A program made the position numbers and the translations under genes. The notes beneath the pieces were generated by a model that had not been told where the DNA came from, did not search any database, and saw nothing but the letters and a program-made list of their open reading frames with translations. 64,000 bases of DNA. It comes from Sphingomonadales bacterium (GTDB lineage: Bacteria; Pseudomonadota; Alphaproteobacteria; Sphingomonadales; Sphingomonadaceae). Positions within the stretch are counted from its first letter, which is position 1; the number at the start of each line of letters is the position of its first letter. Below are positions 42,845 to 59,616 of the stretch, in pieces. The DNA is taken from positions 208 through 64,207 of the forward strand of contig JAYUPB010000090.1 of assembly GCA_043760405.1 (NCBI GenBank). The letters run 5' to 3'.

Positions 42845-42860
42845 AGTAAAACGTTTAATG
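42845..42860. promoter_or_regulatory. LacI-family-type operator, site 1 (AGTAAAACGTTTAATG)
   Basis: 13/16 match to the local consensus AGTAAAACGTTTTACT. It lies in the divergent region between the Rieske oxygenase and the FAH-family gene. Confidence 0.55.
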
Positions 42861-42974
42861 CAATAATTTCCACCAAATACGAATGATGTCAATGGCGAAT
42901 CCTTAGCGTGAGAATTCCGAGGCTCATGCCAAGCCGCTCGATATCGTTCACCTTGCCGTGCCATGGAGGCTAAA

Positions 42975-43658
42975 ATGACTCTCGTTTTTCCAGCTACGCC
43001 CATCACAACAGTTGAGATTAAGGACGAAGACGCATATTTTCCCGTGCGTCGCGTTTACTGTGTCGGCCGCAACTATCTCGCACACGCACGTGAGATGGGA
43101 GCGGACGAGCGGGAAGCCCCGTTTTTCTTCACCAAATTCACCGACACTGTCGTGCCGTCCGGCACGGTTTTGGCCTATCCGCCCCGCACAGCAGACTTTC
43201 ATTACGAAGGCGAGCTGGTCATTGCGATTGGCACACCGGCGTCTAAAGTGAGCGTTGGCGATGCGTTGCAGACGGTATTCGGTTATGCTTGCGGGCTAGA
43301 TATGACACGCCGCGATTTGCAGTTGATCGCACGCGACAAGGGACGCCCGTGGGACATGGGCAAGAATTTCAGTCAAGCCGCCGTCATGGGACCGATTATG
43401 CGGCGGGATGCGGTCGGCGACTTGGCAGGCAAGATGCTGACGCTAAAAGTAAACGGCGTCGTTGCCCAGGAAACCGACCTGGAATTGCTGATATGGTCTT
43501 GCGCTGAAATCATATCGGAATTGAGCCATTATGATGATCTGGCACCAGGTGACCTGATTTACACAGGCACGCCTGCGGGTGTTGGGGCGGTTAAACCCGG
43601 CGACCGGATAGACCTCAGTATTGACGGATTAACGAGTATATACGCGTTGGTGGCGTGA
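42975..43658 (+). CDS. FAH-family hydrolase (fumarylpyruvate hydrolase-like)
   Basis: About 227 aa with VYCVGRNYLAHAREMG and HYEGELVIAIG motifs. A GGAGG SD lies 5 nt before the ATG at 42975. Confidence 0.85.
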   Translation: MTLVFPATPITTVEIKDEDAYFPVRRVYCVGRNYLAHAREMGADEREAPFFFTKFTDTVVPSGTVLAYPPRTADFHYEGELVIAIGTPASKVSVGDALQTVFGYACGLDMTRRDLQLIARDKGRPWDMGKNFSQAAVMGPIMRRDAVGDLAGKMLTLKVNGVVAQETDLELLIWSCAEIISELSHYDDLAPGDLIYTGTPAGVGAVKPGDRIDLSIDGLTSIYALVA

Positions 43659-44284
43659 TGGCCGATTATATTCTGTATGATTTTCCGCGTTCGTCCGCAT
43701 CATACCGCGTACGCATAGCGCTAGCACTGAAAGGCATCGACTATCAAACGCACGCCATCGATCTTAGGGCAGGCGAACAGCGCGCACCGGATTATTGTGC
43801 GGTGGCACCAGCGGGGCTTGTGCCGGCCTTGATGCTGCCTGACAAAACGATATTAACCCAATCATTAGCCATTATGCGGTTTTTAGACACTGTGGCAGAG
43901 CCGCGCCTGTTTCCATGCGATCCCTTGGCGGATGCGCGGGTATCTGCGCTCTCCTTAGCCATTGCCTGTGACATCCACCCACTCAACAACCTTCGTGTGT
44001 TGGGTTATTTGCAAAATGAATTGGCCGTTTCGGACAACGCCAGAACCGATTGGTATGCGCATTGGGTGCAGACGGGATTTGCAGCCCTCGAACCCGAAAT
44101 TACCAAATATGGTGGTTTATATTGTTATGGGAATACTCTCACAGCTGCTGACGTCTGTCTGGTTCCCCAGATGGCGAATGCGCGCCGTTTCAATGTTGAT
44201 GTGAGCGCATTCAAGCTATTGTGCGAGATAAATGATCGGCTTTGCACCATCCCGGAGTTTGTTGCAGCGGCACCCATGTTGTAA
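43658..44284 (+). CDS. maiA: Zeta-class GST, maleylpyruvate/maleylacetoacetate isomerase
   Basis: The RSSASYRVRIALALKG motif is the zeta-GST signature. A TGATG overlap joins it to the upstream gene. Confidence 0.85.
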   Translation: MADYILYDFPRSSASYRVRIALALKGIDYQTHAIDLRAGEQRAPDYCAVAPAGLVPALMLPDKTILTQSLAIMRFLDTVAEPRLFPCDPLADARVSALSLAIACDIHPLNNLRVLGYLQNELAVSDNARTDWYAHWVQTGFAALEPEITKYGGLYCYGNTLTAADVCLVPQMANARRFNVDVSAFKLLCEINDRLCTIPEFVAAAPML

Positions 44285-44290
44285 CGCTGC

Positions 44291-44334
44291 GTGGCAGCAA
44301 GGCGCGTACCATCAACCTGTGCCTGCCACTTTTC
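44291..44334 (+). terminator. Probable terminator after maiA
   Basis: GTGGCAG (44291-44297) pairs with CTGCCAC (44323-44329), followed by TTTTCG. The loop is large. Confidence 0.4.
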
Positions 44335-44401
44335 GTGCACTTGTTTGGCATCGCCCTCTTTCTGACTGACCACAAACGACCTTGACTAAAGCTTAAAAAA
44401 T

Positions 44402-44417
44402 AGTGAAACGTTTCACT
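44402..44417. promoter_or_regulatory. LacI-family-type operator, site 2 (AGTGAAACGTTTCACT)
   Basis: Perfect 16-bp palindrome. The core TGAAACGTTTCA equals the classical Cra/FruR-type LacI-family half-site arrangement. It lies about 120 bp upstream of the ALDH gene. Confidence 0.7.
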
Positions 44418-44461
44418 GTGTTCGGCCACATGATCGATTTTTGAACAAATAAGGTGAAAGA

Positions 44462-44539
44462 ATGCGCAGTGTTTTACCGCAGCGGCAACATGGGCCGCAG
44501 CAGCAGTTAGAGCCAATGTTAAGTCTAAAGGATCAATGA
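44462..44539 (+). CDS. Candidate 25-codon leader ORF (MRSVLPQRQHGPQQQLEPMLSLKDQ)
   Basis: AAGGTGA SD at 44451-44457 and ATG at 44462. The TGA stop (44537-44539) overlaps the ALDH ATG (44536) as ATGA. Confidence 0.25.
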   Translation: MRSVLPQRQHGPQQQLEPMLSLKDQ

Positions 44540-45984
44540 TGCGGATTCAAAGCCTCATTGATGGGCAGTGGGTTGGCGGCGGTCAGCTGCTGCCAAACAA
44601 CAATCCGTCCGACCTTTCCGACATTGTCGGCGAATACGCGCCGCTGGATCAGGCCTGCGTTGCTCAAGCGATAAGCGCTGCAAAGGCGGCCGCGCCTTCG
44701 TGGGGACTGTCAACGATACAGCAGCGTCATGATATTCTGAAGGCGGCAGGCGACGCTCTGCTCGCGCGATGCCAAGAAATCGGTGCGGTGCTCGCTCGGG
44801 AAGAGGGAAAAACGCTTGCGGAAGCCATCGGCGAAACCCGGCGCGCGGCGCAGATTTTCCATTTTTTCTCTGGGGAATGCCTGCGCAGCGGCGGAGAATA
44901 TCTGCCAAGCGTGCGCGCAGACGTGACCGTCAGCATCTCACGCGAACCGGTGGGAGTTGTCGGCATTATCACCCCGTGGAATTTTCCGATTGCCATTCCG
45001 GCATGGAAGATCGCGCCCGCCCTCGCATGGGGCAACACGGTTATTTTCAAACCGGCGGAACTTGTCCCAGCATCGGCCTGGTTGCTGGTGTCGATATTGC
45101 AAGAGGCCGGATTGCCAGACGGCGTCCTCAACATGGTCATTGGTCGCGGCTCAGTCGCAGGGCAAGCAATGCTGCAATCAGCTGACATCGACGCATATAG
45201 TTTCACCGGTTCTACGCATACGGGGGCCATTGTTGCCGCAGCCGGTGCCCATAATCTCAGTCGTGTCCAGCTTGAAATGGGCGGTAAAAACGCTCTTGTC
45301 GTGCTCGATGACGCCGATCTGCCGCTTGCAGTTGACTGTGCAATCAACGGGGCATTTTTCTCGACGGGACAACGGTGTACGGCATCAAGCAGACTTATTG
45401 TGACCGAGGATATCCACGACCGCTTTATCGAAGCGATGACCACGAAAATGGCAACATTGAGGGTTGGGAATGCCCTTGATCCGCAAACCGATATCGGGCC
45501 GGTGGTCGACCAAAGGCAGCTGGACCAAGACGTCGACTACATTGAAATCGCCCAAAAAGAAGGCGGAAAGCTGGTTTGTGGCGGGCAAATAGTGCGCCAG
45601 GCAACTGAAGGTCATTACCTTACTCCCGCATTGTTTACAGAGACGAATGGCGCAATGCGCATCAACCGTGAAGAAGTGTTCGGCCCGGTCGCCAGCGTGA
45701 TCCGTGTCAAGAATTATGAAGAAGCGCTCGAAGTGACCAACGACAGCGACTTTGGCCTGACCGCAGGCATTTGCACGACGAGCCTGAAATACGCGGCACA
45801 TTTCAAGCAACACGCGCAGGTCGGGATGACGATGGTCAACCTTCCTACTGCCGGGGTTGACTATCATGTCCCGTTTGGCGGCAAGAAGGGCTCGAGTCTG
45901 GGTCCGCGCGAGCAGGGGAGCCATGCGCGCGAATTCTACACCAGCACTAAAACGTCTTATGAATTTTCGGGAAAGCTACAATGA
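44536..45984 (+). CDS. NAD(P)-dependent aldehyde dehydrogenase (alpha-ketoglutaric-semialdehyde dehydrogenase-like)
   Basis: 482 aa with LEMGGKNA (catalytic Glu) and FFSTGQRCTASSR (catalytic Cys). Confidence 0.9.
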   Translation: MMRIQSLIDGQWVGGGQLLPNNNPSDLSDIVGEYAPLDQACVAQAISAAKAAAPSWGLSTIQQRHDILKAAGDALLARCQEIGAVLAREEGKTLAEAIGETRRAAQIFHFFSGECLRSGGEYLPSVRADVTVSISREPVGVVGIITPWNFPIAIPAWKIAPALAWGNTVIFKPAELVPASAWLLVSILQEAGLPDGVLNMVIGRGSVAGQAMLQSADIDAYSFTGSTHTGAIVAAAGAHNLSRVQLEMGGKNALVVLDDADLPLAVDCAINGAFFSTGQRCTASSRLIVTEDIHDRFIEAMTTKMATLRVGNALDPQTDIGPVVDQRQLDQDVDYIEIAQKEGGKLVCGGQIVRQATEGHYLTPALFTETNGAMRINREEVFGPVASVIRVKNYEEALEVTNDSDFGLTAGICTTSLKYAAHFKQHAQVGMTMVNLPTAGVDYHVPFGGKKGSSLGPREQGSHAREFYTSTKTSYEFSGKLQ

Positions 45985-46967
45985 TGCGACTTGTGCAGAT
46001 TATTGACGACCAAGGACACCGCCGCGTAGCCAAGGTTGATGGGATGACCCTCGTTTTATTATCCGGCGTCGCATCGATACGCGACTTAGCATCGACAGCG
46101 ATAGCCAACGTCACGACAATTGAAGCACTGGTTTGCGATCTTCTATCAACCGAAATGCTTGATTACGACTCGGTTCAAGATAGCGGACGGCTGCTTCTGC
46201 CCATCGACCATGATGATCCTTACCGGCTGTTTATTACCGGAACAGGCCTCACCCATATTGGCAGCGCGACATTACGAAGTAACATGCACGGCGAAGATCC
46301 CGCGCAGGGAATGACCGATAGCGCCAAACTGTTTCGGGCTGGCCTTGAAAATGGCAAGCCGCCTGCCGGTGTGATCGGGGTGGAACCTGAATGGTTTTTC
46401 AAGGGGACCGGGCTCGATGCGCTACGCAGCGGCGAGCCACTCATCGCCCCCTTTCACGGAACAACAATCGGTGAAGAGGCAGAGCTTGCCGGCGTTTACA
46501 TCATTGCGCCCGACGGCACACCAAACCGAATCGGTTTCATATTGGCCAATGACGTTTCCGACCATGCATTTGAGCAACGCAATTATATGTATATCGCACC
46601 CTCGAAATTGCGTCCTTGCCCCATCGGCCCGGAACTTTTCATTGGCGTCTTACCCGATAGTGTTACTGGAACCGTGCGCGTAAAAAGGGGTGGCGCAACG
46701 ATTTGGGAAAGCTCGTTTGCCAGTGGCGAGGCGAATATGTCGCATAGCATTGCCAACCTTGAATATCATCATTTCAAGGGTGCTAGCGCACGGCGGCCCG
46801 GCGATGTACATTTGCACTTATTCGGCTGCGATGCATCGAGCGGAGCCGCTGGCGTTACTATTAAAGACGGCGATATTTTTGAAATCGATGCGCCCGTGAT
46901 GGGACGTCCATTGCGGAACGAGGTACACTTCGAGGCGCCGAAATCGGTTGCGGTGAAGTGTCTCTGA
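45981..46967 (+). CDS. FAH-superfamily protein of the GguC/AraD1 type
   Basis: 328 aa. The N-terminal MRLVQIIDDQGHRRVAKVDG...LLLPIDHDDPYRLFITGTGLTH resembles GguC/AraD1 (recalled). The ATGA start overlaps the ALDH stop. Confidence 0.65.
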   Translation: MMRLVQIIDDQGHRRVAKVDGMTLVLLSGVASIRDLASTAIANVTTIEALVCDLLSTEMLDYDSVQDSGRLLLPIDHDDPYRLFITGTGLTHIGSATLRSNMHGEDPAQGMTDSAKLFRAGLENGKPPAGVIGVEPEWFFKGTGLDALRSGEPLIAPFHGTTIGEEAELAGVYIIAPDGTPNRIGFILANDVSDHAFEQRNYMYIAPSKLRPCPIGPELFIGVLPDSVTGTVRVKRGGATIWESSFASGEANMSHSIANLEYHHFKGASARRPGDVHLHLFGCDASSGAAGVTIKDGDIFEIDAPVMGRPLRNEVHFEAPKSVAVKCL

Positions 46968-46978
46968 CACGGCGAAAG

Positions 46979-47461
46979 ATGAAAGCTGGCTGGTTGCTGG
47001 CTTTTGTTCTTTTGGGTGCCTGTGACGGTCGACGAGATCAAATCCGCTATTCCACCGCTCAACAAGATGATGAACGCGTTGCCGCAATGTATGCCATGCG
47101 CGCGATCGGCGTTGAGCTCGTCACGATGTTCGAAAACAAAAATCTGAAGCCTTCGCGCATTCGCGCGCTTACGAAGCAGTTGAAAAAGCAGGCAGACGCC
47201 TTGCCCCGGCACTTCGCTTTTGCGCCCGACCCAAAGCGCCGACCAGGCCCCGCCACCAAAGTATCTATTTGGACAGCACCCGTCGATTTTCAGAGGGCAA
47301 TGACCCTATTCCAGCGCAAATCGAGGAATTTGTCCGTAACCGTTGACGCTACACCGAATAGTGAACTGGAGAGCATATGGCCAGTTCTCGTCGATACCGG
47401 GGATTCTTGTACGGCCTGCCACAAGCAATTTCGGCTTGGAGGAGACCCCTCGCACGCATGA
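46979..47461 (+). CDS. Class II (c'/c556-type) cytochrome c, probable lipoprotein
   Basis: Lipobox LLGAC, predicted helical protein, and a single CTACH heme motif 12 residues from the C-terminus, the hallmark of class II cytochromes c. Confidence 0.65.
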   Translation: MKAGWLLAFVLLGACDGRRDQIRYSTAQQDDERVAAMYAMRAIGVELVTMFENKNLKPSRIRALTKQLKKQADALPRHFAFAPDPKRRPGPATKVSIWTAPVDFQRAMTLFQRKSRNLSVTVDATPNSELESIWPVLVDTGDSCTACHKQFRLGGDPSHA

Positions 47462-47516
47462 AGAAACTGTTCGGTTAGATGGGCCGAGTTGACGTCAAGA
47501 TTTTTTGAGATAAATT

Positions 47517-47532
47517 AGTAAAACGTTTTACT
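47517..47532. promoter_or_regulatory. LacI-family-type operator, site 3 (AGTAAAACGTTTTACT)
   Basis: Perfect 16-bp palindrome, 18 bp upstream of the EF-hand gene start and overlapping its likely promoter/5'UTR. Confidence 0.7.
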
Positions 47533-47549
47533 CAAACAAAGGTGAGCTA

Positions 47550-48029
47550 ATGTCAAAATGGAAAAACGGAAAGCGGTTAATGCTGTCGCTGCTTGGCGCG
47601 GCAATGCTGGCTGCGCCAACCGCTTCATACGCGGATGAAACCGCGCACAAGATGCTTGATAAAGCGGCTGTCAAAACAGGCCCTGGCGGCGCGGCGCGCG
47701 AAGTCATGGAAGAAGCGTTGCATCAGTTCTGGGCTTTTTTCAAAGGCGGCGACGCTGACCAGAGCGGATATATTGACGAAAAGGAATTTTTTGCTCATCC
47801 CGTTTATGAAGGTGCAAAATGGAATAAGGAGCAGATTACGTTCGTATTCTGGATGGTCGACGATGACAAAGATAATAAAGTATCGTTGCAGGAATGGTTC
47901 AACAACGAGCTTGGCCAATTTCAGCTTGGTGACAAGAATCATGACGGGATCATCGATCAAAAAGAATATGATGCTCTTCTCGAAATACAGCAGAAGCTTT
48001 TTCGGGATATGAAGTTTCCTAATGATTAA
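47550..48029 (+). CDS. Periplasmic triple EF-hand calcium-binding protein (paralog A)
   Basis: Signal peptide plus three canonical 12-residue loops: DADQSGYIDEKE, DDDKDNKVSLQE and DKNHDGIIDQKE. Confidence 0.8.
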   Translation: MSKWKNGKRLMLSLLGAAMLAAPTASYADETAHKMLDKAAVKTGPGGAAREVMEEALHQFWAFFKGGDADQSGYIDEKEFFAHPVYEGAKWNKEQITFVFWMVDDDKDNKVSLQEWFNNELGQFQLGDKNHDGIIDQKEYDALLEIQQKLFRDMKFPND

Positions 48030-48636
48030 GGGTGATGCCCTTGGCGTAAGTCGACTACGACTGCTGCTGGCTATACCGGCGGGCCTCGTCTTGGCAGCAG
48101 CATCGCCGGCACCGTCGTTCGAAGTAACCGACAGTGCTGGCGTTGTGCACCGATCATCGGACTACCGCGGCAAGGTGATCATCCTGGAATGGATGAACCC
48201 GTATTGCGATGCCAACGGCAAATATTACAACAGTAAAAAGCTCCCTAGATTGCAAGCGAAGTGGAATGATGAAAAGACGGCTTGGCTGATGATCAATTCG
48301 TATAAGCCTGACCAAGAAGGCTATGTCAGTGCGAACGTCGCCCGCTATCTTCTGATGTCAACCGGAGCCAAGGTAGATGGTTTCGTTTCAGATTCGTCCG
48401 GGGATCTCGCCAAAGCCTATGATATCGACCAAGTTCCTTCAGCAGTTATCATCGACGCCGATGGTAATTTGGCATATCGAGGCTCATTCGACGATTATGA
48501 AGGTGATGATCCTGCTGGGTTGCTTGAAGCGCCAAGTCATATCGATGATGTTTTGACTTCTTTGGCAACAGGCGCGGTGCCCGCAAAATCGGGCAGCAAG
48601 CCGAATGGCTGCTCGTTCAACGGGAGAGCGAAATGA
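48022..48636 (+). CDS. Secreted thioredoxin-fold (redoxin-like) protein with a single Cys
   Basis: VIILEWMNPYCDANGKYYNS...WLMINSYKPDQEGY resembles redoxin-family proteins with EWTNxxCPxV (recalled), but the CPxV is replaced by CDAN. It overlaps the EF-hand gene by 8 nt. Confidence 0.5.
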   Translation: MIKGDALGVSRLRLLLAIPAGLVLAAASPAPSFEVTDSAGVVHRSSDYRGKVIILEWMNPYCDANGKYYNSKKLPRLQAKWNDEKTAWLMINSYKPDQEGYVSANVARYLLMSTGAKVDGFVSDSSGDLAKAYDIDQVPSAVIIDADGNLAYRGSFDDYEGDDPAGLLEAPSHIDDVLTSLATGAVPAKSGSKPNGCSFNGRAK

Positions 48637-49865
48637 CAAAAACCCCAAAATTTTTCGCAATAACTGGCATGTTGGGGATATTCACTGCTGCGTCATGGGG
48701 GTCTACGGCATATCCTCAGGTCGCGCTGCCTCCATCAACTGTCGATCCCGATCTTGTCAGCGCGCGCATGGCTTTCCCCTCGCCGCCGCTTAATGTCGTT
48801 ACATTCCGTTCATTTGATCGTCTGTTCGAAAACGAACCAGTATCTGCATCATCGCGACCTTGGCTTATCCCGAGTGACAAACAAAACTTCGCTTTAAAAT
48901 ACCAGTATGACGGCAAAAACCTTAGGCTCGACGATTTCCTGAGCCGTACCTATACCAATGCATTCATTGTCATTAAAGACGGCCACATAGTGAGCGAACA
49001 CTACCGGAATGGTGGCGATGCAACATCGCGCTACGCAGTATTTTCGATTGCCAAATCTTTGGTATCAATGCTTGTTGGCATCGCCATTGATAGAGGTGAA
49101 ATAGCATCAGTCGATGATCCAATCACGCGCTATGCACCTGAGTTTATGGGGACCGCATACGAAGGGGTTTCGCTGCGCGATGCTTTACAGATGCGATCTG
49201 GCGTAGACTTCAGCGAGGACGGAGCCCCATTCTTCAATTTCCTAGAAACTGTCATCGCCGGCAATCAGCAGCGATGTGCGGATTTCATCAAGTCTGCTCC
49301 GCGTGCACATGCACCCGGCACAACGTTCAATTATTCCTCCCCCGAAACATGCGTGATCGCGCGGGTTTTAGAAAAAGCTACCGGCCAGCGCTTATCGAAA
49401 TATATGGAGCGTCATCTTTGGCATGCCGCCGGAATGGAGTACCCAGGATATTGGGTTTTAGACGGGAAGCCTGGAACAGGCACTGCAATCGCCAATGGCG
49501 GTTTTGGTGCATCGGCGCGTGATCTGGCGCGTGTTGGTCAACTTATGCTCGATGGCGGAGTTGCCGGCAAAAGACGCATTTTGCCGGCGGATTGGGCGGC
49601 GCGCTCCACGGCGACTGACGGTGAAACCGGCAAAAAGCGGCGTGAAGGCTATGGCTATCAATGGTGGACGTTAGGAGAGCCTGACGCGTTTGCCGGCGTC
49701 GGTTTACACGGCCAATATCTCTATGTTGTTCCTTCGCAGAAACTTGTCATTGTTAAATTTAGTTACTGGCCGACTGGTTGGGACGAAAAGCTGGAACAGG
49801 AAACAATCGCAGCCTTCAAGGCAATTGGTGATACTGGTTCTAGAGTCGGTGGACACAAAAAATAG
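48633..49865 (+). CDS. Secreted beta-lactamase-fold (class C-type) serine hydrolase
   Basis: SIAK (SxxK) nucleophile motif and a 410-aa signal-bearing protein. The ATGA start overlaps the upstream gene. Confidence 0.85.
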   Translation: MTKTPKFFAITGMLGIFTAASWGSTAYPQVALPPSTVDPDLVSARMAFPSPPLNVVTFRSFDRLFENEPVSASSRPWLIPSDKQNFALKYQYDGKNLRLDDFLSRTYTNAFIVIKDGHIVSEHYRNGGDATSRYAVFSIAKSLVSMLVGIAIDRGEIASVDDPITRYAPEFMGTAYEGVSLRDALQMRSGVDFSEDGAPFFNFLETVIAGNQQRCADFIKSAPRAHAPGTTFNYSSPETCVIARVLEKATGQRLSKYMERHLWHAAGMEYPGYWVLDGKPGTGTAIANGGFGASARDLARVGQLMLDGGVAGKRRILPADWAARSTATDGETGKKRREGYGYQWWTLGEPDAFAGVGLHGQYLYVVPSQKLVIVKFSYWPTGWDEKLEQETIAAFKAIGDTGSRVGGHKK

Positions 49866-50927: not shown

Positions 50928-50938
50928 AACGTTTTATT
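50923..50938. promoter_or_regulatory. LacI-family-type operator, site 4 (TGCATAACGTTTTATT), overlapping the LacI start codon
   Basis: 12/16 match to the consensus, consistent with autoregulation. It also lies in the divergent region toward the VOC-like gene. Confidence 0.45.
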
Positions 50939-51908: not shown

Positions 51909-51927
51909 CAACGCGAGGGAAATATCT

Positions 51928-52740
51928 ATGTGGGTAGCAGAATCGCGGATCGCACAATCGACCAAAGCGCGTATTTATTATGAAATCTATGGCTGCGGCC
52001 CGTGCGTCATGATGATCCCAGGGGCGTTTGAAACCCATGTCTGTTTCTACAAAAACATTCCTGCATTTGTGCAGGCTGGATATACAGTTATTGCCACAAA
52101 CTTGCGTGGGCATTTTCAGTCGCCCTGCAAGACGGGTGATCTTGGCTTTCGGTATCACCCTGATGATATCGGGGCCGTACTGGATCAGGAGGGGATAAAA
52201 CAGACGGCCTTAATCGGATGGTCGATGGGGGGTTTTGGCGCTACCCGCTTTGCAACGCAGAATACTGATCGCGTGTCGGCGCTGGTCCTTATGGGGTCGA
52301 CCGCTGGTGTCTGGTCAGAAGAGAATTATGCCAACAATGGCAAGGCAATCGACTCCGTGATGGCAGACATCGGCAAAGGCGGTCCGTGGCCGTTCGATAT
52401 GGGCCAAGACGATGCGACCGATAAATTTTTGCGGCGACAACTGCAAATGCTGCATAGCGATGATGGGTTTCTGCCTGGGCCGGTTGCGCTGCTGCCGATG
52501 ATGATGGACAAAGATATTTGGCTCACGCCAGAGCAGCTCGCCGAATTTAACACGCCGACGCTGCTCGTCGGGGGTGATACTGATAATTTTCTGCCTGCCG
52601 GTTTCCAGCGGCATTTGCTCCAGATCCTGCCGGGTGCTGAATTGAGCGCGTTTCAGAATGCTGGCCATAATCCGCATTGGGAAGACCCAGCGCGTTTCAA
52701 CACGACAACAATCGAATGGTTGAAATCAAAAGGTTGGTGA
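51928..52740 (+). CDS. Alpha/beta hydrolase
   Basis: GAGGGA SD then ATG at 51928, nucleophile elbow GWSMGG and a C-terminal GHNPHWEDP containing the catalytic His. Confidence 0.85.
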   Translation: MWVAESRIAQSTKARIYYEIYGCGPCVMMIPGAFETHVCFYKNIPAFVQAGYTVIATNLRGHFQSPCKTGDLGFRYHPDDIGAVLDQEGIKQTALIGWSMGGFGATRFATQNTDRVSALVLMGSTAGVWSEENYANNGKAIDSVMADIGKGGPWPFDMGQDDATDKFLRRQLQMLHSDDGFLPGPVALLPMMMDKDIWLTPEQLAEFNTPTLLVGGDTDNFLPAGFQRHLLQILPGAELSAFQNAGHNPHWEDPARFNTTTIEWLKSKGW

Positions 52741-54066
52741 AAGTTGGTCTTGAGCCACAACGCTGACACGGCGTGCAGGCCAGACAATGATGAAACCGAC
52801 AAATGCGCTTGCTGCCAATACCAGCGGCAGAGATGTTGCTATTCCCGCAGTGCCGGGAAAAACATTATCATTCAATAGACCAACCAGCAGCGGCCCAACA
52901 CCAAGCCCGATAACATTTGCGCTAACGAGGCTGAGCGCTGCAATGCGTGCTCGAAACTCCGAAGGCGTAAGCAGCTGAATGGCGATGGGCACTGACGCGA
53001 GCATTGCGGTGAAACCGAAGGCTATGCCTGCATAAGCAACCCATGTTGCGGTCAAGCCATTGTTCAAGAGCAAGCTGATGGCGAACAACAGGCAAATCGT
53101 TGCTGCGAACAAAAGGCAGAGTATGGGACCGTTGTTTCGTCCGCTTTTTACTAATCTGTCGCAGGCTATTCCGCCAAGGATCGGACCAAGCGAGCCAAAT
53201 AGCAGCATGATCAGACCGAATTTCCCACCAATTTCAGACGGTGATAATCCGTGGACCCGGCCAAGACTGGCCGGCCCCCACGAAACAAACGCATATCCGA
53301 CGATGCACAAGATTCCGTAGCCGCCGAGCAGAGGTCCATAGATAGCGCGGTTCGATTTGATAAAGGCGAAAGCACTGACGCCACTTTGCGCTTCGTTTTC
53401 GGCTTGCTGCCGACCGGTCCGCTTTGGTTCGCTCACGGTCACCATTATCAGTATTGCCAATATCAGCCCTGGCAATCCTACCGCAACAAAGGTCGCCTGC
53501 CACGGCTTTAAATTCCAGCCAATATCAAGGCCGCCCTGCGAAACAAAATAGCTATACAGCTTGCCGCCGATCAGCAGTGCGAGGCCAGTTCCGATGACGC
53601 CAGCAGCCGTGAATATGCCGATAGCGCGGCCGAGTTTCGCTTTGGAAAAACGGTCCGAAAGCAAGGAATAAGCCGCCGGATTGAGTGCCGCTTCCCCGAC
53701 AGCGACGCCCGTTCGGGCAAAGAATAGCGTGGCGTAACTGCTCGCCAGGCCACAACCAATAGTCATGATGCTCCAAAGGCCAATGCCCGCAGAAACGATG
53801 TTACGGCGATTGCTTTGGTCAGCGAGCCAGCCAATTGGGACACCTGTTAGCGCGTAAAAAATGGCAAATGTCGCACCTTGCAACAGCGCGATGCCTGTAT
53901 CGGTGAGTCCCAGGTCTGCCTTGATCGGTTCAACCAAAAGGCTGATGACAGTCCGGTCGAGCATGGAAAGAATAAAGGCAAGTGACAACAGTGTGAGCAG
54001 ATACCATGCGCGCTTATCATCCTGTCTGGCCTCGTCGGGCAGAGCCTCAGCGACTGACATTAGCAT
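52726..54066 (-). CDS. MFS transporter
   Basis: 446 aa with 12 predicted TM helices and MFS loop motifs (DRTVISL, GWLADQSNRR). Confidence 0.9.
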   Translation of the reverse strand: MLMSVAEALPDEARQDDKRAWYLLTLLSLAFILSMLDRTVISLLVEPIKADLGLTDTGIALLQGATFAIFYALTGVPIGWLADQSNRRNIVSAGIGLWSIMTIGCGLASSYATLFFARTGVAVGEAALNPAAYSLLSDRFSKAKLGRAIGIFTAAGVIGTGLALLIGGKLYSYFVSQGGLDIGWNLKPWQATFVAVGLPGLILAILIMVTVSEPKRTGRQQAENEAQSGVSAFAFIKSNRAIYGPLLGGYGILCIVGYAFVSWGPASLGRVHGLSPSEIGGKFGLIMLLFGSLGPILGGIACDRLVKSGRNNGPILCLLFAATICLLFAISLLLNNGLTATWVAYAGIAFGFTAMLASVPIAIQLLTPSEFRARIAALSLVSANVIGLGVGPLLVGLLNDNVFPGTAGIATSLPLVLAASAFVGFIIVWPARRVSVVAQDQLSPTF

Positions 54067-55276
54067 TTACCTCAGGGAAGGCATCGGTCATGCTTTTGAA
54101 GTCATCTTGTTTTTTCAGCCATGCATAATCATCGTTTACGCCGACACCAACGACCACCAAAATAACGTCACGAGACGGCACAATCCTTAAAATCACCCCG
54201 CCCCAGCCGGTGTGACCAAAAGCATCAATTGGTATGCCAGAAGCGGGGGGAGCCAGTATAATTTTGGGCAGCAAGTCCATAACGAATGTAAACATCCCGT
54301 AATATTCGCCGGCGGCATTTGCTGGGTATTCAGGAGGCAATGGCTTGATCAGCGACGCGTTGCTGGGTGTGCGCATTTCATTCACCCATCCGGCAGGGAG
54401 TATTTGTTTGCCGTCCCAGGTACCGTCGCGCAAAAGGAGGTAGCCAAATCGAGCAATATCGCACGGGCTCCATCTAACGCCGGATGATCCATACCATGTG
54501 CCCTTTTGATCAAATTCCAGCTCTATGGTGTTCGCACCGATCGGGGTGCTGATCTCGTCGCGGACCCAATTGGCAACTTTGCTCCGGCTCCCGCCCACTT
54601 TTTGCAAAGCAAGCGCACCAATCAGCGAAGGTGTTCCATCCGAATACTGCCATAAAGTGCCGGGAGCATGTCTCAGCGGCTGCTTGGCAGTGTAGTGAGC
54701 CAAGTCCTTATACCCTTCGCCAAAAGCTAAGCCGATGAGCGAGGCGTCTCCTTCTTCCTCCCACCCAAGTCCGGTTGCCATATTGAGCGTATCGCGCAGG
54801 GTGATCTTCGATCGCGGGTCATTTTGTGGCCACTGCATAATGCCAAGGGGATTGTCCAATGCGGCTTTGCCATCTCTGACTAGAACGCCAGACATTGCGG
54901 CGCCCATCATTTTTGCGACAGACATTGAAAATACCGTGCGGTCACAGGTGTAACCATTGGTATAGCGTTCAGCAACGACGCGTCCTTTATGGATAACAAG
55001 CATCGCGTTTGTTTTACCCATCAACGGGTCTTTTGAGTTCATCGCTTCATCAAGCATAGCGTTAAGGCCATTGGCATCTGTACCCGCGTCAAGCTTGCTC
55101 CTCTCCCACTCAGTTGTCGGCCAGGCCAGGCCATCAGGCTGCATAGGCAAATCGCTATAAACAAATTTACGCGGCGATTTGTTTTGCTGTGCGTTTGGCT
55201 GAGCGGAAATAATCTGCACGGTTCCAACGGTGAAAGCTGTAATGGCGACTAATAAAGTAGCTTTGAACCTGTTCAT
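54047..55276 (-). CDS. Secreted beta-lactamase-fold (class C-type) serine hydrolase
   Basis: Signal peptide (VQIISAQP) and SVAK (SxxK), 409 aa. It overlaps the MFS start by 20 nt. Confidence 0.85.
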   Translation of the reverse strand: MNRFKATLLVAITAFTVGTVQIISAQPNAQQNKSPRKFVYSDLPMQPDGLAWPTTEWERSKLDAGTDANGLNAMLDEAMNSKDPLMGKTNAMLVIHKGRVVAERYTNGYTCDRTVFSMSVAKMMGAAMSGVLVRDGKAALDNPLGIMQWPQNDPRSKITLRDTLNMATGLGWEEEGDASLIGLAFGEGYKDLAHYTAKQPLRHAPGTLWQYSDGTPSLIGALALQKVGGSRSKVANWVRDEISTPIGANTIELEFDQKGTWYGSSGVRWSPCDIARFGYLLLRDGTWDGKQILPAGWVNEMRTPSNASLIKPLPPEYPANAAGEYYGMFTFVMDLLPKIILAPPASGIPIDAFGHTGWGGVILRIVPSRDVILVVVGVGVNDDYAWLKKQDDFKSMTDAFPEVNANVSR

Positions 55277-55303
55277 GCTTGCAGACCCCTGTGAAGTTAG
55301 TCT

Positions 55304-55319
55304 AGTTAAACGATTAACG
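55304..55319. promoter_or_regulatory. LacI-family-type operator, site 6 (AGTTAAACGATTAACG)
   Basis: 12/16 match, in the divergent region between the serine hydrolase/MFS unit and the 114-aa ORF/enolase unit. Confidence 0.4.
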
Positions 55320-55323
55320 TGTT

Positions 55324-55668
55324 ATGAGGGAGTTTTGGATTGTGCGCAAGATTGGAAAATGGACCTTCCGCATTATTGGTGTAATATGCCTGATCGCTAT
55401 TATTCCAGTGACGATTAAAGTGCGCGAATATGGCTATGTCACGACGCGTCTCACCGCTCGTGTCGTATGTCCCATGGTCTACATCGACGGCCGGGACACA
55501 AGCTTTGCGTTGAATCATCTGAACATGATTGGCATTGTTCCGTTTGATCCGCGTAGTATTGTTACCGTAAAACTTGATCCCAAAAAACGTGAAACTATTG
55601 TAACAGCCTACGGGATGTTTGAGGCTCGCTCCATCCACTATCCCGGCGAAGGCTGTGTAATGCAATGA
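55324..55668 (+). CDS. Hypothetical membrane-anchored protein
   Basis: 114 aa with one N-terminal TM helix (WTFRIIGVICLIAIIPV). It sits between operator site 6 and the enolase-superfamily gene. I recognise no family. Confidence 0.35.
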   Translation: MREFWIVRKIGKWTFRIIGVICLIAIIPVTIKVREYGYVTTRLTARVVCPMVYIDGRDTSFALNHLNMIGIVPFDPRSIVTVKLDPKKRETIVTAYGMFEARSIHYPGEGCVMQ

Positions 55669-55708
55669 TTCCGACCCGCAAATCATTTGATGAGAATTGA
55701 GCCCAGAT

Positions 55709-56908
55709 ATGCGCATTTCAAAAGTTGAAGTCATCCGGATTGGCGAACCGGAATGGGACACTCCGGACTGGTGGGCGACATGCAACCTCGACGGGCTGTT
55801 CGAAACTGGAGCGCGTTTTCGCAAAGACCCGATTGGGCTGTTCAACAAGCCAATTGGCGGTGTTGGCGACCCGACCTTTGCAATCATTGTGCGCATTTTC
55901 ACCGACGATGGCGTTGATGGTTTCGGCGTCGTGGCATTGGGTTCGGAAGCGGTAGCACAAGTCGTCGAAAACCGACTTGCGCCGCTAATTATTGGCCGTG
56001 ACCCGTTCGATGTCGAGCTGATCTGGGAACTGATGTACCGATCAACACTCAACATAGGCCGCAAAGGCCTCACGCTTGAGGCGATCAGCGGCGTTGATAT
56101 CGCGCTTTGGGACCTTATGGGAAAAGCCGTTGGAAAGCCTGCCTTTGCGCTGATGGGCGGGCGCACACGCGAAAAGATTCGCGGTTATGCCAGTGCAGGT
56201 TATGCAATGGAAGACCTCGACCAGATCGCAGAAATGGCGCGCGGATATCGCGCTCAGGGCTTTACCGCGATGAAGATGCGCTTCGGCTGGGGGCCAGCGG
56301 ACGGTCGCGCCGGGATGCGCCGGAATATCGAAATGGTCGCACAACTGCGTGATGCCATCGGTGATGATATGGATTTGATGGCCGACGCCTATATGGGCTG
56401 GACGACGCAATATGCCATTGAGATGCTTGAAAAACTGAAGCCATTTGAACTTGCTTGGGTCGAAGAACCAATCTCCGCTGATGACTATGATGGCTATGCC
56501 CGGATTCGCGCATCGACCAACATCGCAATCGCGGGCGGAGAGCATGAATTCACCCGTCACGGTTTCAAGGAACTCATTACGCGCGGTTGTGTTGATATCG
56601 TTCAGCTCGACGTGAATCGTTGTGGCGGCCTAACCGAAGCGCGCAAAATTGTAGCATTGGCACAGGCGTTCAATCTACCTGTCGTGCCGCACGCACCGGA
56701 AACGCCGAATATTCACCTTGTTATGGCGCACCACAATATGCCGATGCTGGAGGTGTTTCCAAATCACGGTCGCGACGGCGACACCTTCACCGGCGAGCTT
56801 GTGGTGGGCGATCCAGTCTGCACCGACGGCTATCTTGAGATGAGCGACGCGCCAGGCCTTGGCGTGCAATTGAACTGGGATGTAATCGAAAAGTATCGCG
56901 TCCTATAG
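55709..56908 (+). CDS. Enolase-superfamily (mandelate racemase/muconate lactonizing) acid-sugar dehydratase-like enzyme
   Basis: KMRFGWGP and metal-ligand contexts DAYMGW, VEEP and GGEHE in the canonical order. A TTG at 55697 is an alternative start. Confidence 0.88.
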   Translation: MRISKVEVIRIGEPEWDTPDWWATCNLDGLFETGARFRKDPIGLFNKPIGGVGDPTFAIIVRIFTDDGVDGFGVVALGSEAVAQVVENRLAPLIIGRDPFDVELIWELMYRSTLNIGRKGLTLEAISGVDIALWDLMGKAVGKPAFALMGGRTREKIRGYASAGYAMEDLDQIAEMARGYRAQGFTAMKMRFGWGPADGRAGMRRNIEMVAQLRDAIGDDMDLMADAYMGWTTQYAIEMLEKLKPFELAWVEEPISADDYDGYARIRASTNIAIAGGEHEFTRHGFKELITRGCVDIVQLDVNRCGGLTEARKIVALAQAFNLPVVPHAPETPNIHLVMAHHNMPMLEVFPNHGRDGDTFTGELVVGDPVCTDGYLEMSDAPGLGVQLNWDVIEKYRVL

Positions 56909-56917
56909 AAAACCGGA

Positions 56918-57325
56918 CTATTTTGCGGCAAGGTCAGCGAACAGCTTTTCCTCGATTTTTTCGAGGCGTGCAGCCTCGTCTATGCTGAGCACGCCGTCGT
57001 GATTGCTGTCGCCCAACTGAAACTGACCAAGCTCGTTATTGAACCATTCTTGCAAAGAGATGCGGTTATCTTTGTCGTCGTCAATCATCCAGAATATGAA
57101 GGTTTTGGTCCGCAGATCGAAATCCGTCTCGGCATAGCCGGGATGCTGAAAAAATTCGGCGTTGGACCAATGCCCGTCCTTGTTCGCGTCGCCCTGCGCA
57201 AAGAATTTCCAGTTGTCTAAGAGAGCGACCTCTATGGTGCCAGGTTCGGCCGCCGACAATAACGTCGGCGGCCACATGAGCGCGAGCGTAATCGCACCAC
57301 ACAGTTTTAAGCATTTATTTTTCAC
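56918..57325 (-). CDS. Periplasmic triple EF-hand calcium-binding protein (paralog B)
   Basis: Signal peptide and loops DANKDGHWSNAE, DDDKDNRISLQE and DSNHDGVLSIDE. It shares the invariant block SLQEWFNNELGQFQLGD with paralog A. Confidence 0.8.
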   Translation of the reverse strand: MKNKCLKLCGAITLALMWPPTLLSAAEPGTIEVALLDNWKFFAQGDANKDGHWSNAEFFQHPGYAETDFDLRTKTFIFWMIDDDKDNRISLQEWFNNELGQFQLGDSNHDGVLSIDEAARLEKIEEKLFADLAAK

Positions 57326-57362
57326 CGGTCGACTTTCAAAATACCCGCCACAAAGGCTGGTT

Positions 57363-59510
57363 TCAGAATTTATACCCTAAGGTTAGACCAAATTGACGTG
57401 CTTGCCCGGGTGTCCCGAAGAAGAAATCACTGCCCAGTGTATTGGCGTAGGTAATGTACCGTTTGTTGGCCACGTTATTGACAAAAGCTTGCACGCTGTA
57501 GCGGCCATCGTCGTAGCCGATTGACGTATTAAAAACGTCGTAGCCCGAGAGGATTCCAAATGCGTTCAGAGCATCATTTTGTTCATAAAATGTTCCGGCT
57601 GACTGCCATTCTCCCGATAGCGCTACATTGGCGATAGGTTCCCACGCTATCGAGGCAGAGGCCGAGTATTTCGGAATGATGGGGACACGGTTGCCCGTTT
57701 TATCACCTTCCGCATCCACGAAGTTCCGGTAACGAATGTCGTTATAGCCGATCCCGCCGGTTATGGTGAGCGAAGGAGCGATCCGGGCGTTCAGTTCTAC
57801 CTCAAAACCCTTTGCACGGACTTTGTTGGCATTGGACACAAACCCGGAAATGGGCGTGTCGCGGATCAATTCCTGATAGTCTGATATGTCCGTGAGATAG
57901 GCCGCTATATTAAGCGTTACACGACGATCAAACAACTGGGTCTTGGCCCCAATTTCATAATTCCAGCTTCGTTCCGCTGAAAATGTTGTGATGAGCGGAT
58001 CTGGATTATCCAGACTTGGTCCGCCAGGCAGCCACGCTCGTGCAATTGACGCATAAAGCAAAATGTCCTCAGCTGGCTTGTAATCCGCTTCTGCTCGGTA
58101 AGAGAAGAAGCTGTCCTTGTATCGGCCAAGCAATGGCGCATCTTTGACTACCGGGTCGGCAAAACCATCTAAAATATCGACGGATACGCTATTCTCTTTG
58201 ACGCTCTCATATCTGCCCCCAAAAGTGACTGAGAATTGATCGGAAACCTTGTAAGTTCCTTGAGCGAAAGCGGAAATGTTTTTCGCTTTTGTCGTATCTT
58301 CGGACAGGAATGGCACGAATGTGCCATCTGCCAAGCCAATATTGACCCGAGAATCCTCATTACGCTCAAAATAGAAAAGTCCGGCGGTCCACAAAAATGG
58401 GCCGTCACTTTTCGACGCAAGTCGCAATTCTTGTGTGAATGCCGATTGGTCGACTATAGATTGACCAAGCGTTACCCCTCCGAAAAAGGGAAGAAACGGG
58501 TCAGGAGTCTGATCAGGATCGAACGCAGGATTTTGCGTGAATTTACGGTATGCGCTGACCGAAATGAGATCCACCGCACCGAGGTCGAACGACATTTTGA
58601 ATGAGGCTTCGTCTGCATCGGACGTTGAAAATCCAGCCGTGTCAGCCGCAACCCCAAAGCGCCCGACGTTTACGCCAAACGTTGCGTTATACAGCTCACG
58701 CTCGAGCGGAATATACGCCACCCCGAAGTCAGCCTCGGAGTGGTGCTTCGAATAAATAAGGTCGAATTCGGATGTCTCACTGGGCGTAAAAATCAAACGA
58801 ACGCGGCCGGAAATACGCTTACTTTGGTCAATATTACGATCAATTATTGGATCGAAGATGAACCCATCTTTTTGCTCAAATTGCACGCCAAAACCAACTG
58901 ACAGTTTGTCAGTAATGATAGGACCCGATGCAGATAGCGAAGCACGATATTCACCGTCGTTGGTCAAGCCAAGAGATACGCGGCCTTCCGTGTCGTTGCC
59001 CGGTTTTTTAGTTTTTATGACGATCAGCCCGCCTTCTGCATTTAGGCCGTAAAGCGACGTTTGCGGTCCGCGCAATACTTCCACTTGGTCTACATCGAAG
59101 ATGCCGGAGCCGTTGACGGAAAGTTGCGTTGTAATCGGAACATCGTCGATGATCATGCCAACACGGGGCGTGCTGGTCGCATTGTTATTGCCAATACCGC
59201 GGATTGCCAGAATAGTTGTGTTCGAACCTGACCCGCTACCAAGTGCAACCAGACTCGGGGCGATGGCGTTAAGATCCCGGACTGACGTGACCTGCGCGCT
59301 TTCGAGCTGTGCGCCAGAGAGTACAGCGACTGACGCAGGCACATCTTGCAGACGCTCATCGCGCCTCCGCGCTGTAACGACTATTTCTCCGGTGCTCACT
59401 TCTTCGTCCTCGGCCTCCTGAGCAAGCGCGGGATTAATACCCACGCACAGCGCCGCAAGTGATGCCGTCATGATTAAAGCCTTGGTGGTGTTCCTGAAAG
59501 TCTGTGTCAT
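57363..59510 (-). CDS. TonB-dependent receptor
   Basis: GGAGGAG SD before the ATG at 59510, a signal peptide ending ALAQ, a plug (GEIVVTARRRDERLQDVPASVAVLSG) and a C-terminal ...LGYKF. Confidence 0.9.
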   Translation of the reverse strand: MTQTFRNTTKALIMTASLAALCVGINPALAQEAEDEEVSTGEIVVTARRRDERLQDVPASVAVLSGAQLESAQVTSVRDLNAIAPSLVALGSGSGSNTTILAIRGIGNNNATSTPRVGMIIDDVPITTQLSVNGSGIFDVDQVEVLRGPQTSLYGLNAEGGLIVIKTKKPGNDTEGRVSLGLTNDGEYRASLSASGPIITDKLSVGFGVQFEQKDGFIFDPIIDRNIDQSKRISGRVRLIFTPSETSEFDLIYSKHHSEADFGVAYIPLERELYNATFGVNVGRFGVAADTAGFSTSDADEASFKMSFDLGAVDLISVSAYRKFTQNPAFDPDQTPDPFLPFFGGVTLGQSIVDQSAFTQELRLASKSDGPFLWTAGLFYFERNEDSRVNIGLADGTFVPFLSEDTTKAKNISAFAQGTYKVSDQFSVTFGGRYESVKENSVSVDILDGFADPVVKDAPLLGRYKDSFFSYRAEADYKPAEDILLYASIARAWLPGGPSLDNPDPLITTFSAERSWNYEIGAKTQLFDRRVTLNIAAYLTDISDYQELIRDTPISGFVSNANKVRAKGFEVELNARIAPSLTITGGIGYNDIRYRNFVDAEGDKTGNRVPIIPKYSASASIAWEPIANVALSGEWQSAGTFYEQNDALNAFGILSGYDVFNTSIGYDDGRYSVQAFVNNVANKRYITYANTLGSDFFFGTPGQARQFGLTLGYKF

Positions 59511-59600
59511 AATTCCGCTCCTCCCTTTCCTCATTTATTGTGCCCAAACCTTGCTCTGACAAAACGAGCGGACGTTAAACAAAATGCGTTGCGCCAGAAT

Positions 59601-59616
59601 GATAAAACGTTTAACC
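59601..59616. promoter_or_regulatory. LacI-family-type operator, site 7 (GATAAAACGTTTAACC)
   Basis: 12/16 match, in the divergent TonB receptor / PepSY region. It partly overlaps an AATGATAA string that could instead be read as a Fur half-box. Confidence 0.4.

Follow-up and report, generated by a model that had tools for sequence, protein, structure and literature searches.

The window analysed here is a stretch of 64 kb from a Sphingomonadales bacterium (contig JAYUPB010000090.1), and the subject of this analysis is an island at 40.0-63.7 kb (23.7 kb, of which 96.4% is coding and 3.6% intergenic) that contains one gene for a LacI-family transcription factor together with seven 16-bp palindromic sites, here designated O1 to O7. 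An earlier sequence-only reading of the same DNA had listed seven 16-mers and interpreted them as operators of the local LacI protein that form one regulon. All seven sequences and coordinates are as it gave them, its gene labels are correct by Pfam and NCBIfam, and its central claim is well supported by the form of the sites, their promoter positions and their co-conservation with the regulator. The palindromes, with the consensus AGTAAAACGTTTTACT, very probably serve as operators of the LacI protein encoded at 49872-50927, giving a predicted regulon of six to seven operators, up to ten transcription units and about 23 genes.

The sites are described here with their scores in a weight matrix that was built from the seven sites and used to scan the window. 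O1 (AGTAAAACGTTTAATG, 42845-42860, 23.8 bits) lies between a minus-strand operon (40032-42771) encoding the alpha and beta subunits of a Rieske oxygenase and a gentisate 1,2-dioxygenase (GDO), and a plus-strand operon (42963-44284) encoding a FAH-family hydrolase and a GST of the maleylpyruvate/maleylacetoacetate-isomerase type. The Rieske alpha gene most likely starts at ATG 42771 and not at TTG 42876, the N-terminus at the former position aligning with the orthologues, and O1 is therefore truly intergenic. O2 (AGTGAAACGTTTCACT, 44402-44417, 23.2 bits), a perfect palindrome, lies upstream of a plus-strand unit (44536-47461) for an aldehyde dehydrogenase (ALDH), a GguC/AraD1-type L-2-keto-3-deoxyarabinonate (L-KDA) dehydratase and a cytochrome c' (PF01322). 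O3 (AGTAAAACGTTTTACT, 47517-47532, 27.4 bits), also a perfect palindrome, precedes a plus-strand unit (47550-49865) in which Pfam identifies an EF-hand protein, an AhpC/redoxin-like protein and a beta-lactamase-family serine hydrolase, hereafter serine hydrolase 2. O4 (TGCATAACGTTTTATT, 50923-50938, 16.2 bits) covers the start codon of the LacI gene, which lies on the minus strand, and stands 92 bp upstream of the gene for a Glyoxalase_3 (VOC) protein; the latter shares a plus-strand unit (51030-52740) with an alpha/beta hydrolase gene that begins at 51928. O5 (AGTAAAACGTTTTATG, 51614-51629, 24.8 bits) falls wholly inside the Glyoxalase_3 gene, which bears out the intragenic placement in the sequence-only reading. 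O6 (AGTTAAACGATTAACG, 55304-55319, 20.3 bits) separates a minus-strand unit (52726-55276) for a second beta-lactamase-family enzyme, serine hydrolase 1, and an MFS transporter (52726-54066) from a plus-strand unit (55324-56908) for a 114-aa protein and an enolase of the mandelate-racemase (MR) subgroup. O7 (GATAAAACGTTTAACC, 59601-59616, 21.1 bits) separates a minus-strand unit (56918-59534) for a TonB-dependent receptor (TBDR, 57363-59534) and a further EF-hand protein from a plus-strand unit (59637-63685) for a PepSY_TM protein, a CocE/NonD (S15) hydrolase and a BKACE enzyme. Altogether, the six intergenic operators face up to ten transcription units. A candidate eighth site (ACTAAAACGTCTTATG, 45946-45961) at the 3' end of the ALDH gene, 35 bp before the GguC start, is weak at 11.6 bits, and an equally weak counterpart occurs at 14965 in L002, one of the orthologous loci described below.

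The occurrence of the motif in the window departs strongly from chance. The core octamer AAACGTTT is present five times, always within 42849-59612 and nowhere else in the 64 kb; the count of five in the sequence-only reading is confirmed, and its estimate of about one chance copy per 64 kb compares with a mean of 1.68 in shuffled windows, 2 of 100 shuffles reaching five. The longer pattern TNAAACGTTTNA has five exact copies, all between 42.8 and 59.6 kb, against 0.074 expected under a first-order Markov model (Poisson P = 1.8e-8), and allowing one mismatch gives 7 matches against 1.95 expected, a number that none of 100 shuffles reaches. With the seven-site matrix, the sites themselves score 16-27 bits, the next best match is the one at 45946 with 11.6 bits, all others remain below 8.5 bits, and no site of at least 10 bits is found in the other 47 kb of the window. 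A scan of this kind had been proposed in the sequence-only reading for the whole genome and its relatives; within the 64 kb covered here, it places the sites with a promoter bias and in a 17-kb block. In leave-one-out matrices, six sites still rank 1-7 in the window and the site at 50923 drops to 6.9 bits and rank 9, so that six sites are strong matches and O4, over the LacI start codon, is a weak one. A matrix derived from distant orthologous loci only returns the same six sites as its top six matches in the window.

Position and form agree with this picture. Five sites are wholly intergenic and a sixth is mostly so, in an island with only 3.6% intergenic sequence (P = 1.5e-8), and the distance from a site centre to the start codon that follows is 3.5-126 bp. 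The consensus is an even 16-bp palindrome, matched perfectly by two sites, and all seven carry the central CG. The LacI-type operator architecture named by the sequence-only reading is the canonical form of the family: an even palindrome with central CG was described for 1173 of 1303 LacI-family transcription factors, with motif lengths of 16-22 nt (PMC4052901). In the same survey, more than 75% of sites are located 30-140 bp upstream of start codons, less than 1% lie in coding sequence, and 72% of the regulators are autoregulated (PMC4052901).

The operators also occupy a recurrent place relative to promoter-like elements, whose -35 and -10 assignments here are consensus matches only. At four promoters the operator begins 0-2 nt after a -10-like hexamer. 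O1 lies 2 nt downstream of TTGACA-18-AATTAT on the minus strand (42892-42863, -10-like hexamer at 42863-42868), O3 abuts the -10 of TTGACG-16-TAAATT on the plus strand (47489-47516, hexamer at 47511-47516), and O7 lies 2 nt downstream of TTGACA-17-CATATT on the minus strand (59647-59619, hexamer at 59619-59624). The alignment of the serine hydrolase 1 promoter reads TTGCGC-17-CATAAC, then 2 nt, then O6. In the O2 region, a six-locus alignment with a mean column identity of 35% shows two conserved blocks, the operator core and, 14 nt ahead of it, a TTGAC(T) box; in the window this box is TTGACT at 44382-44387 on the plus strand, it falls in invariant alignment columns, and it would act as the -35 element of the ALDH promoter. 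Because the invariant TTGACT stands 14 bases before O2, the operator would cover the expected -10 of that promoter. A protein bound there would stand in the way of RNA polymerase, as in the classical arrangement of a repressor.

The regulator is a protein of 351 aa with the helix-turn-helix domain PF00356 and the effector-side domains PF13377, PF00532 and PF13407 (Peripla_BP_1/3/4); it reaches no NCBIfam equivalog cutoff. A tblastn search detects no second LacI gene in the 64-kb window, in agreement with the single regulator seen in the sequence-only reading. Its recognition helix is S-L-A-T-V-S-N, and the orthologues share the form S-[LV]-A-T-V-S-N, with S-V-S-T-V-S-N in the most distant locus, L009. 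The relation between helix and motif was examined in unrelated LacI paralogue loci of at most 45% identity among the matches listed in a metagenome scan. Among these listed matches, the window-type motif occurs upstream of 6 of the 23 paralogue regulators with Ala as the second variable helix residue and upstream of none of the 36 with Met (Fisher P = 0.002), a contrast that fits a recognition code. As a separate observation, the LacI paralogues of 40-45% identity (L010:9950-11081, L012:9952-11088, L013-L020 and L037) have the recognition helix S-[PA]-M-T-V-S-N and adjoin clusters with ILVD_EDD dehydratase, RraA-like and ABC-transporter genes. These loci carry a palindrome of their own, CAT(G/T)TAACG(A/T)TA(C/T)ATG, near the regulator gene, in what appears to be a sister regulon of sugar-acid type.

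The homologues of the LacI protein form a graded identity series in which the gene context changes below about 45%, where paralogues begin. A search of genome contigs with the LacI protein returns only two very close relatives, both metagenome-assembled genomes (MAGs), L001 (96%) and L002 (94%), and tblastn against PLSDB plasmids finds no orthologue, the best match being 42% identical. The remaining orthologous loci are L003 (83%), L004 (77%), L093 (59%), L006 (58%), L007, L008 and L094 (50% each), L095 (49%) and L009 (48%). Operator sites precede the same genes in nine loci spanning 94-48% identity (L002, L003, L004, L006, L093, L007, L094, L095 and L009), where they stand upstream of the hydrolase/enolase, TBDR, ALDH-GguC or LacI genes in a rearranged gene order. 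In intergenic alignments with a mean column identity of 35-63%, the operators appear as conserved blocks. Co-conservation of motif and LacI orthologue, the supporting test put forward in the sequence-only reading, is therefore seen both as sites in nine loci and as alignment footprints, and the non-island flanks of the orthologous loci contain no sites.

The individual operators differ in their reach. The site of O6 type, in the hydrolase/small-protein intergenic region, is found in L001-L004, L006, L093, L007, L008 and L095. The site of O7 type, upstream of the TBDR gene, is found in L001, L002, L003, L006 (in two copies), L093, L007, L008, L095 and L094, and the site of O2 type, upstream of ALDH-GguC, in L002, L003, L004, L006 and L093. 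Counterparts of O4 occupy the same position in L001, L002, L004 and L005; the LacI/Glyoxalase_3 intergenic region has a strong site at another place in L006 and a weaker one in L093, and in L003 (83%) the corresponding intergenic region has no site. A promoter region with an operator stands ahead of the LacI gene in L007, L095 and L009. L009 is the minimal case, having from this gene set only enolase, GguC, ALDH and LacI, no hydrolase homologue, and a single operator between GguC and enolase. O3 and its EF-hand/redoxin/serine hydrolase 2 genes occur as a unit only in the window and L002, and the redoxin gene only there.

O5 stands apart from the other sites. It is present only in L001 and L002 among the relatives, degraded in L004 and absent in L003, L006 and L093, decaying together with the protein sequence. 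Because the codons of S-V-K-R-F-M spell it out and it is limited to relatives of at least 94%, a coding by-product is a possibility, as is a site that arose by accident or only very recently. At a distance of 2 nt there is an antisense promoter-like element, TTAGCA-18-TACAAT. The region around O5 (51611-51633) and that around O1 (42842-42864) have 21 of 23 bases in common (ATnAGTAAAACGTTTnATGCAAT), and at both places the shared stretch runs past the 16-bp operator into the -10-like element on the minus strand. A tetrameric LacI that loops the DNA from O4 to O5, comparable to lac O1-O2, was considered and rejected, since the protein sequence has no C-terminal extension like the tetramerisation helix of E. 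coli LacI and since O5 is not conserved beyond the 94% relatives.

The constant partners of the regulator indicate the metabolic core of the regulon. In a presence/absence table for the nine loci, enolase and GguC accompany every LacI orthologue and ALDH is present in seven of nine, and in the Sphingomonadales loci the TBDR, PepSY_TM protein, MFS transporter and serine hydrolase join this core. GguC reaches the equivalog NF040903 with 417 bits against a cutoff of 340 in a full-length alignment; a PDB search with it returned nothing. The best models for the ALDH, NF052305 and NF042993, are 2,5-dioxovalerate dehydrogenase (500 bits) and KGSADH GucD (496 bits), with cutoffs of 750 and 770, respectively. 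The enolase, by family an acid-sugar dehydratase of the MR subgroup, matches PDB entries 3STP, 3SSZ and 3SQS at about 50% identity (E about 1e-95), and its score for L-rhamnonate dehydratase, 269 against 393, lies, as with all NCBIfam equivalogs, below the cutoff. The MFS transporter has its best match in the D-galactonate-transporter family, also below cutoff. Taking 3STP as the L-lyxonate dehydratase (LyxD) of Labrenzia aggregata, the island enolase would be about 50% identical to a LyxD-type enzyme. Ghasempur and colleagues reportedly described this dehydratase in 2014, together with the same three-enzyme L-lyxonate route in Pseudomonas aeruginosa.

Taken together, enolase, GguC/AraD1 and ALDH make the regulon core recognisable as a putative Weimberg-type L-pentonate pathway, from L-lyxonate or L-arabinonate to 2-oxoglutarate. 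The statement in the sequence-only reading that the gene mix fits no nameable pathway was accordingly too strong. The L-lyxonate pathway of P. aeruginosa PAO1, as cited in PMC6336799, follows the same three-step logic as the island and includes a dedicated transporter. AraD1 is an L-2-keto-3-deoxyarabinonate dehydratase in the Weimberg cluster of Acinetobacter baumannii (10.1101/2025.03.16.643438), and cluster I of that organism (AraC1, AraD1, AraE1) has the same logic of dehydratase, GguC/AraD1, semialdehyde dehydrogenase and transporter; an activator, AraR1, is described there (10.1101/2025.03.16.643438), in contrast to the predicted LacI repressor of the island. A Weimberg-type L-pentonate route is normal territory for a LacI-family regulator. 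Of the groups in the LacI-family survey, 96% control carbohydrate metabolism, and the word 'aromatic' is absent from the main text of that paper (PMC4052901). Since no genes other than enolase and GguC accompany every LacI orthologue, the most likely inducer would be an L-pentonate-type acid sugar or its 2-keto-3-deoxy product.

The second metabolic module, a gentisate pathway, has a different history. Its markers above cutoff are GDO (TIGR02272, 485.7 bits against 442.1) and the maiA-type GST (TIGR01262, 233.7 bits, cutoff 171); the FAH-family hydrolase matches PF01557 with E = 6e-54, and the Rieske alpha subunit, which with the beta subunit would form a candidate salicylate 5-hydroxylase, reaches no NCBIfam equivalog cutoff, its closest model being AndAc (392 bits against 750). 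From the gene context, the GST and FAH enzymes would act in the pyruvate rather than the acetoacetate series. Operons for nag-type conversion of salicylate to gentisate are usually under regulators of LysR, IclR or MarR type. The island resembles the nag-type pathway in combining a two-subunit Rieske oxygenase with gentisate 1,2-dioxygenase, a GST-type isomerase and a FAH-family hydrolase, and differs from it in the LacI-type operator 2 nt after a -10-like hexamer and in the lack of adjacent ferredoxin and reductase genes. Between 37.1 and 63.7 kb no gene for a ferredoxin or a reductase is apparent, and the electron-transfer partners of the Rieske oxygenase must have their genes elsewhere.

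Beside the gentisate genes of the window there is no LysR, IclR or MarR gene, and a literature search gave no precedent for a LacI-family regulon that includes gentisate genes. The view of the sequence-only reading that LacI control of a Rieske/gentisate pathway is atypical holds, with the restriction that such control is confined to the clade with LacI identity of at least 83%. O1, the Rieske/FAH operator, is found only in the window, L002 and L003, and the Rieske/FAH intergenic region has no site in L004 (77%), L006 (58%) or L007 (50%). An IclR-family gene stands beside the FAH-GST genes in L006 (L006:15470-16213), and a 245-aa MCPsignal gene is located ahead of the Rieske genes in L004 (L004:15336-16073) and L006 (L006:16298-17035). 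Because the gentisate operator is limited to loci with at least 83% LacI identity and an IclR gene is present in the 58% relative, placement of the gentisate genes under LacI is plausibly a recent, lineage-specific addition in which IclR was swapped for LacI. The gentisate module adjoins the core genes in six loci with differing gene orders (the window, L002, L003, L004, L006 and L007), an adjacency compatible with a functional link and no proof of one.

Such a link would exist if, along the lines proposed in the sequence-only reading, the substrate were a single conjugate, an ester or amide of a salicylate-type aromatic acid with an L-pentonate-like polyhydroxy acid, taken up through the TonB receptor, cleaved by the serine, alpha/beta and CocE hydrolases and degraded by the gentisate and Weimberg routes. 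The adjacency in six loci of the gentisate module with enolase, GguC, hydrolase and transporter genes speaks for this idea, as do the TonB receptor, the recurrence of hydrolases (two of the beta-lactamase family, the alpha/beta hydrolase, CocE, and a penicillin-amidase family protein in L095) and the single operator type that spans both modules in the window. Conversely, the gentisate operator is absent in L004, L006 and L007, with an IclR gene of its own in L006; L094, L095 and L009 have no gentisate genes in the available sequence; the island shows no ferredoxin or reductase partner; the searches gave no hydrolase a substrate; and no known compound of such a kind was identified. Because the gentisate operator is not ancestral and three loci are without gentisate genes, the conjugate is considered possible, and on balance doubtful. 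Among side observations on these loci, the penicillin-amidase family protein is encoded at L095:9337-11697, and L009:422-4438 and 9427-13896 encode two further beta-lactamase-family proteins, a PTR2-type MFS transporter, an S9 peptidase and an M19 dipeptidase. These amide-bond hydrolases and the peptide-type transporter hint that amide or peptide bonds may belong to the substrate. Somewhat more speculative still is the proposal that the island is a conserved freshwater Sphingomonadales system for an undescribed natural conjugate, possibly a metal-chelating compound or xenosiderophore, which would enter through the siderophore-type TonB receptor with its PepSY_TM partner, be cleaved by an unusual combination of beta-lactamase-fold, alpha/beta and CocE hydrolases and be channelled into the gentisate and Weimberg routes. 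In the lineage of the window, a sugar-acid LacI would then have taken the place of IclR at the aromatic branch, so that a single signal governs the entire route.

The reading preferred here is a local regulon of the LacI protein around a predicted L-pentonate core. From the observed sites, their statistics, promoter positions and co-conservation, we infer binding and repression of the following kind. A LacI dimer would bind each operator, placed either immediately behind the -10 hexamer of a sigma-70-type promoter or on top of it, and the bound repressor would block initiation, leaving up to ten transcription units in the 23-kb island silent until an effector releases it. The ancestral core would comprise the LyxD-like enolase-superfamily dehydratase, the GguC/AraD1 dehydratase and the ALDH, acting as a 2-oxoglutarate-semialdehyde dehydrogenase. 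In the Sphingomonadales loci this core is accompanied by a set for uptake and hydrolysis, comprising the TonB receptor, PepSY_TM protein, MFS transporter, beta-lactamase-family hydrolase and EF-hand protein. In the sublineage of the window the regulon would have gained operators before the salicylate/gentisate genes and a duplicated EF-hand/redoxin/hydrolase unit.

Several observations weigh against this interpretation. The effector assignment rests on gene co-occurrence, and both the enolase and the ALDH are below curated cutoffs. The ALDH promoter has no recognisable -10 hexamer, and the scanned region contains 22 promoter-consensus matches where chance would give 15.2. The candidate autoregulatory site scores weakly in the window and is missing from L003, and L094 has no window-type site between hydrolase and LacI. 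Lastly, paralogues of 27-30% identity have near-identical motifs beside their own genes, for example AGTAAAACGTTACACT and AGTTAAACGTTTAACT. Because unrelated LacI proteins share nearly the same operator, the motif alone cannot say which LacI binds.

This last point leads to the explanation that the sites are real LacI-type operators bound by another LacI-family regulator encoded elsewhere, of Cra-, PurR- or GluR-like type, with the local LacI being incidental or only partly involved. The core TGAAACGTTTCA is generic for the family, the 27-30% paralogues carry almost the same motif, and the window covers only 64 kb of a genome that may contain more LacI genes. Set against this, every strong site falls in the 17 kb that surround the only LacI gene of the window, and the other 47 kb are free of them. 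The motif also stays with the LacI orthologue across heavily rearranged loci whose identity falls to 48%, the minimal L009 among them. The LacI promoter regions carry sites in most loci, and the non-island flanks carry none. A different cognate regulator is accordingly judged improbable.

That the palindromes are non-regulatory repeats, produced by chance, as coding by-products or as remnants of short repeated or mobile elements, draws on the site at 51614, which encodes SVKRFM and decays with the protein sequence, on the weakness of the site at 50923 and on the 21/23 nt likeness of O1 and O5 as a possible sign of copying, and it is scarcely credible against a Poisson P of about 2e-8, an intergenic share of 3.6% that holds six of the seven sites, and operators that are conserved in diverged alignments. 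An origin from a repeat or mobile element was rejected specifically, the sole extended match being the 23-nt likeness of the O1 and O5 regions, with no longer common flanks, transposase genes or terminal repeats at the sites in the window.

The remaining genes of the island and its surroundings provide further observations. The 114-aa protein (55324-55668) has a hydrophobic N-terminal stretch, a possible membrane anchor, and searches of Pfam, NCBIfam and PDB with it were empty; ten homologues are detectable among 5.8 billion proteins, all unnamed or hypothetical. Its gene adjoins the enolase gene in the closer relatives, and in the clade of roughly 50% identity a homologous gene is placed immediately before LacI. 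Serine hydrolase 1 has only remote relatives in PDB, and the TBDR is closest to the siderophore-receptor subfamily TIGR01783, with 209 bits against a cutoff of 223.5. The two EF-hand genes, at 47550-48029 on the plus strand and 56918-57325 on the minus strand, are paralogues, each within an operator-controlled unit, and they give rise to a 110-nt inverted repeat of 80% identity (47838-47947 and 56994-57103). Together with serine hydrolase 2, the EF-hand paralogue gives the impression of a duplicated module. A look-up of the BKACE protein for sequence to the right of the window gave no record. No RNA family of Rfam was found in the window.

To the left of the gentisate genes, an open reading frame of 138 aa (39561-39977) matches only positions 120-200 of the 372-position OprB carbohydrate-porin model and is probably a gene fragment marking the left edge of the island. 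The preceding region, 30267-39416, has a lower G+C content (47-52%) and encodes an SSF transporter, a DeoR regulator, a 927-aa TonB receptor, a PETase/dienelactone-hydrolase-like protein, SapC and a tryptophan-halogenase-family protein; it contains no LacI-type sites and looks like a separate utilisation cluster built around its TonB receptor. Further left, at 26479-30166, a DUF3604 protein (787 bits), a PPIC-type rotamase and a HupE/UreJ-family protein are encoded in a row and are unrelated to the regulon.

Comparison with described systems places the island among local LacI regulons. It shares with those surveyed by Ravcheev et al. 2014 (PMC4052901) the palindrome form, sites mostly within about 130 bp upstream, a regulator inside the cluster, a predicted sugar-acid core, possibly (through the weak O4) an autoregulatory site, and an apparent gradual expansion. 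It looks larger than two-operon local regulons such as AglR and ThuR (PMC4052901), and it differs from the surveyed LacI regulons in including an aromatic ring-cleavage pathway and in having one strong site inside a coding region. With LacI, MFS transporter, TBDR and enzymes in one place, the island has the layout of a carbohydrate-utilisation (CUT) locus, in which a LacI/GalR-family repressor, an MFS transporter, a TBDR and degradative enzymes are likewise combined (PMC1790865). In the sux locus of Xanthomonas campestris, suxR-suxC-suxAB, the repressor represses all units including its own (Blanvillain et al. 2007, PMC1790865), and in the island the TBDR, the MFS unit and the regulator gene each have a predicted operator ahead of them. 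Unlike CUT loci, the island has serine, alpha/beta and S15 hydrolases instead of glycoside hydrolases, and its substrate is probably no neutral sugar; in addition, PepSY_TM, EF-hand proteins and cytochrome c' accompany the receptor, and a gentisate pathway is attached.

The locus is thus best described as a well-supported, apparently genuine local LacI-family regulon in a CUT-like locus centred on a predicted L-pentonate pathway. Its unusual aspects are the size of the regulon, an aromatic ring-cleavage pathway that appears to have come under it recently, and the attached uncharacterised hydrolases and periplasmic proteins. The existing picture of LacI-family regulation is unchanged by it, the predicted switch being of an ordinary bacterial kind. 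For uncultured Sphingomonadales that are known here only from MAGs and metagenome contigs, it provides a testable regulon, with operator, repressor and gene set. The narrow distribution of the newer operators appears to capture regulon growth in progress, in which a local sugar-acid LacI would be acquiring operators before a gentisate pathway and a duplicated unit within a narrow clade. Poorly characterised proteins, namely the two beta-lactamase-fold hydrolases, the Glyoxalase_3 protein, the 114-aa protein, the EF-hand proteins and the PepSY_TM/TonB receptor pair, become tied to an L-pentonate core, which offers enzymologists a few candidate substrates to try, and an inducer assay. Should the conjugate substrate prove true, the island would represent a sink for an undescribed natural product in freshwater.

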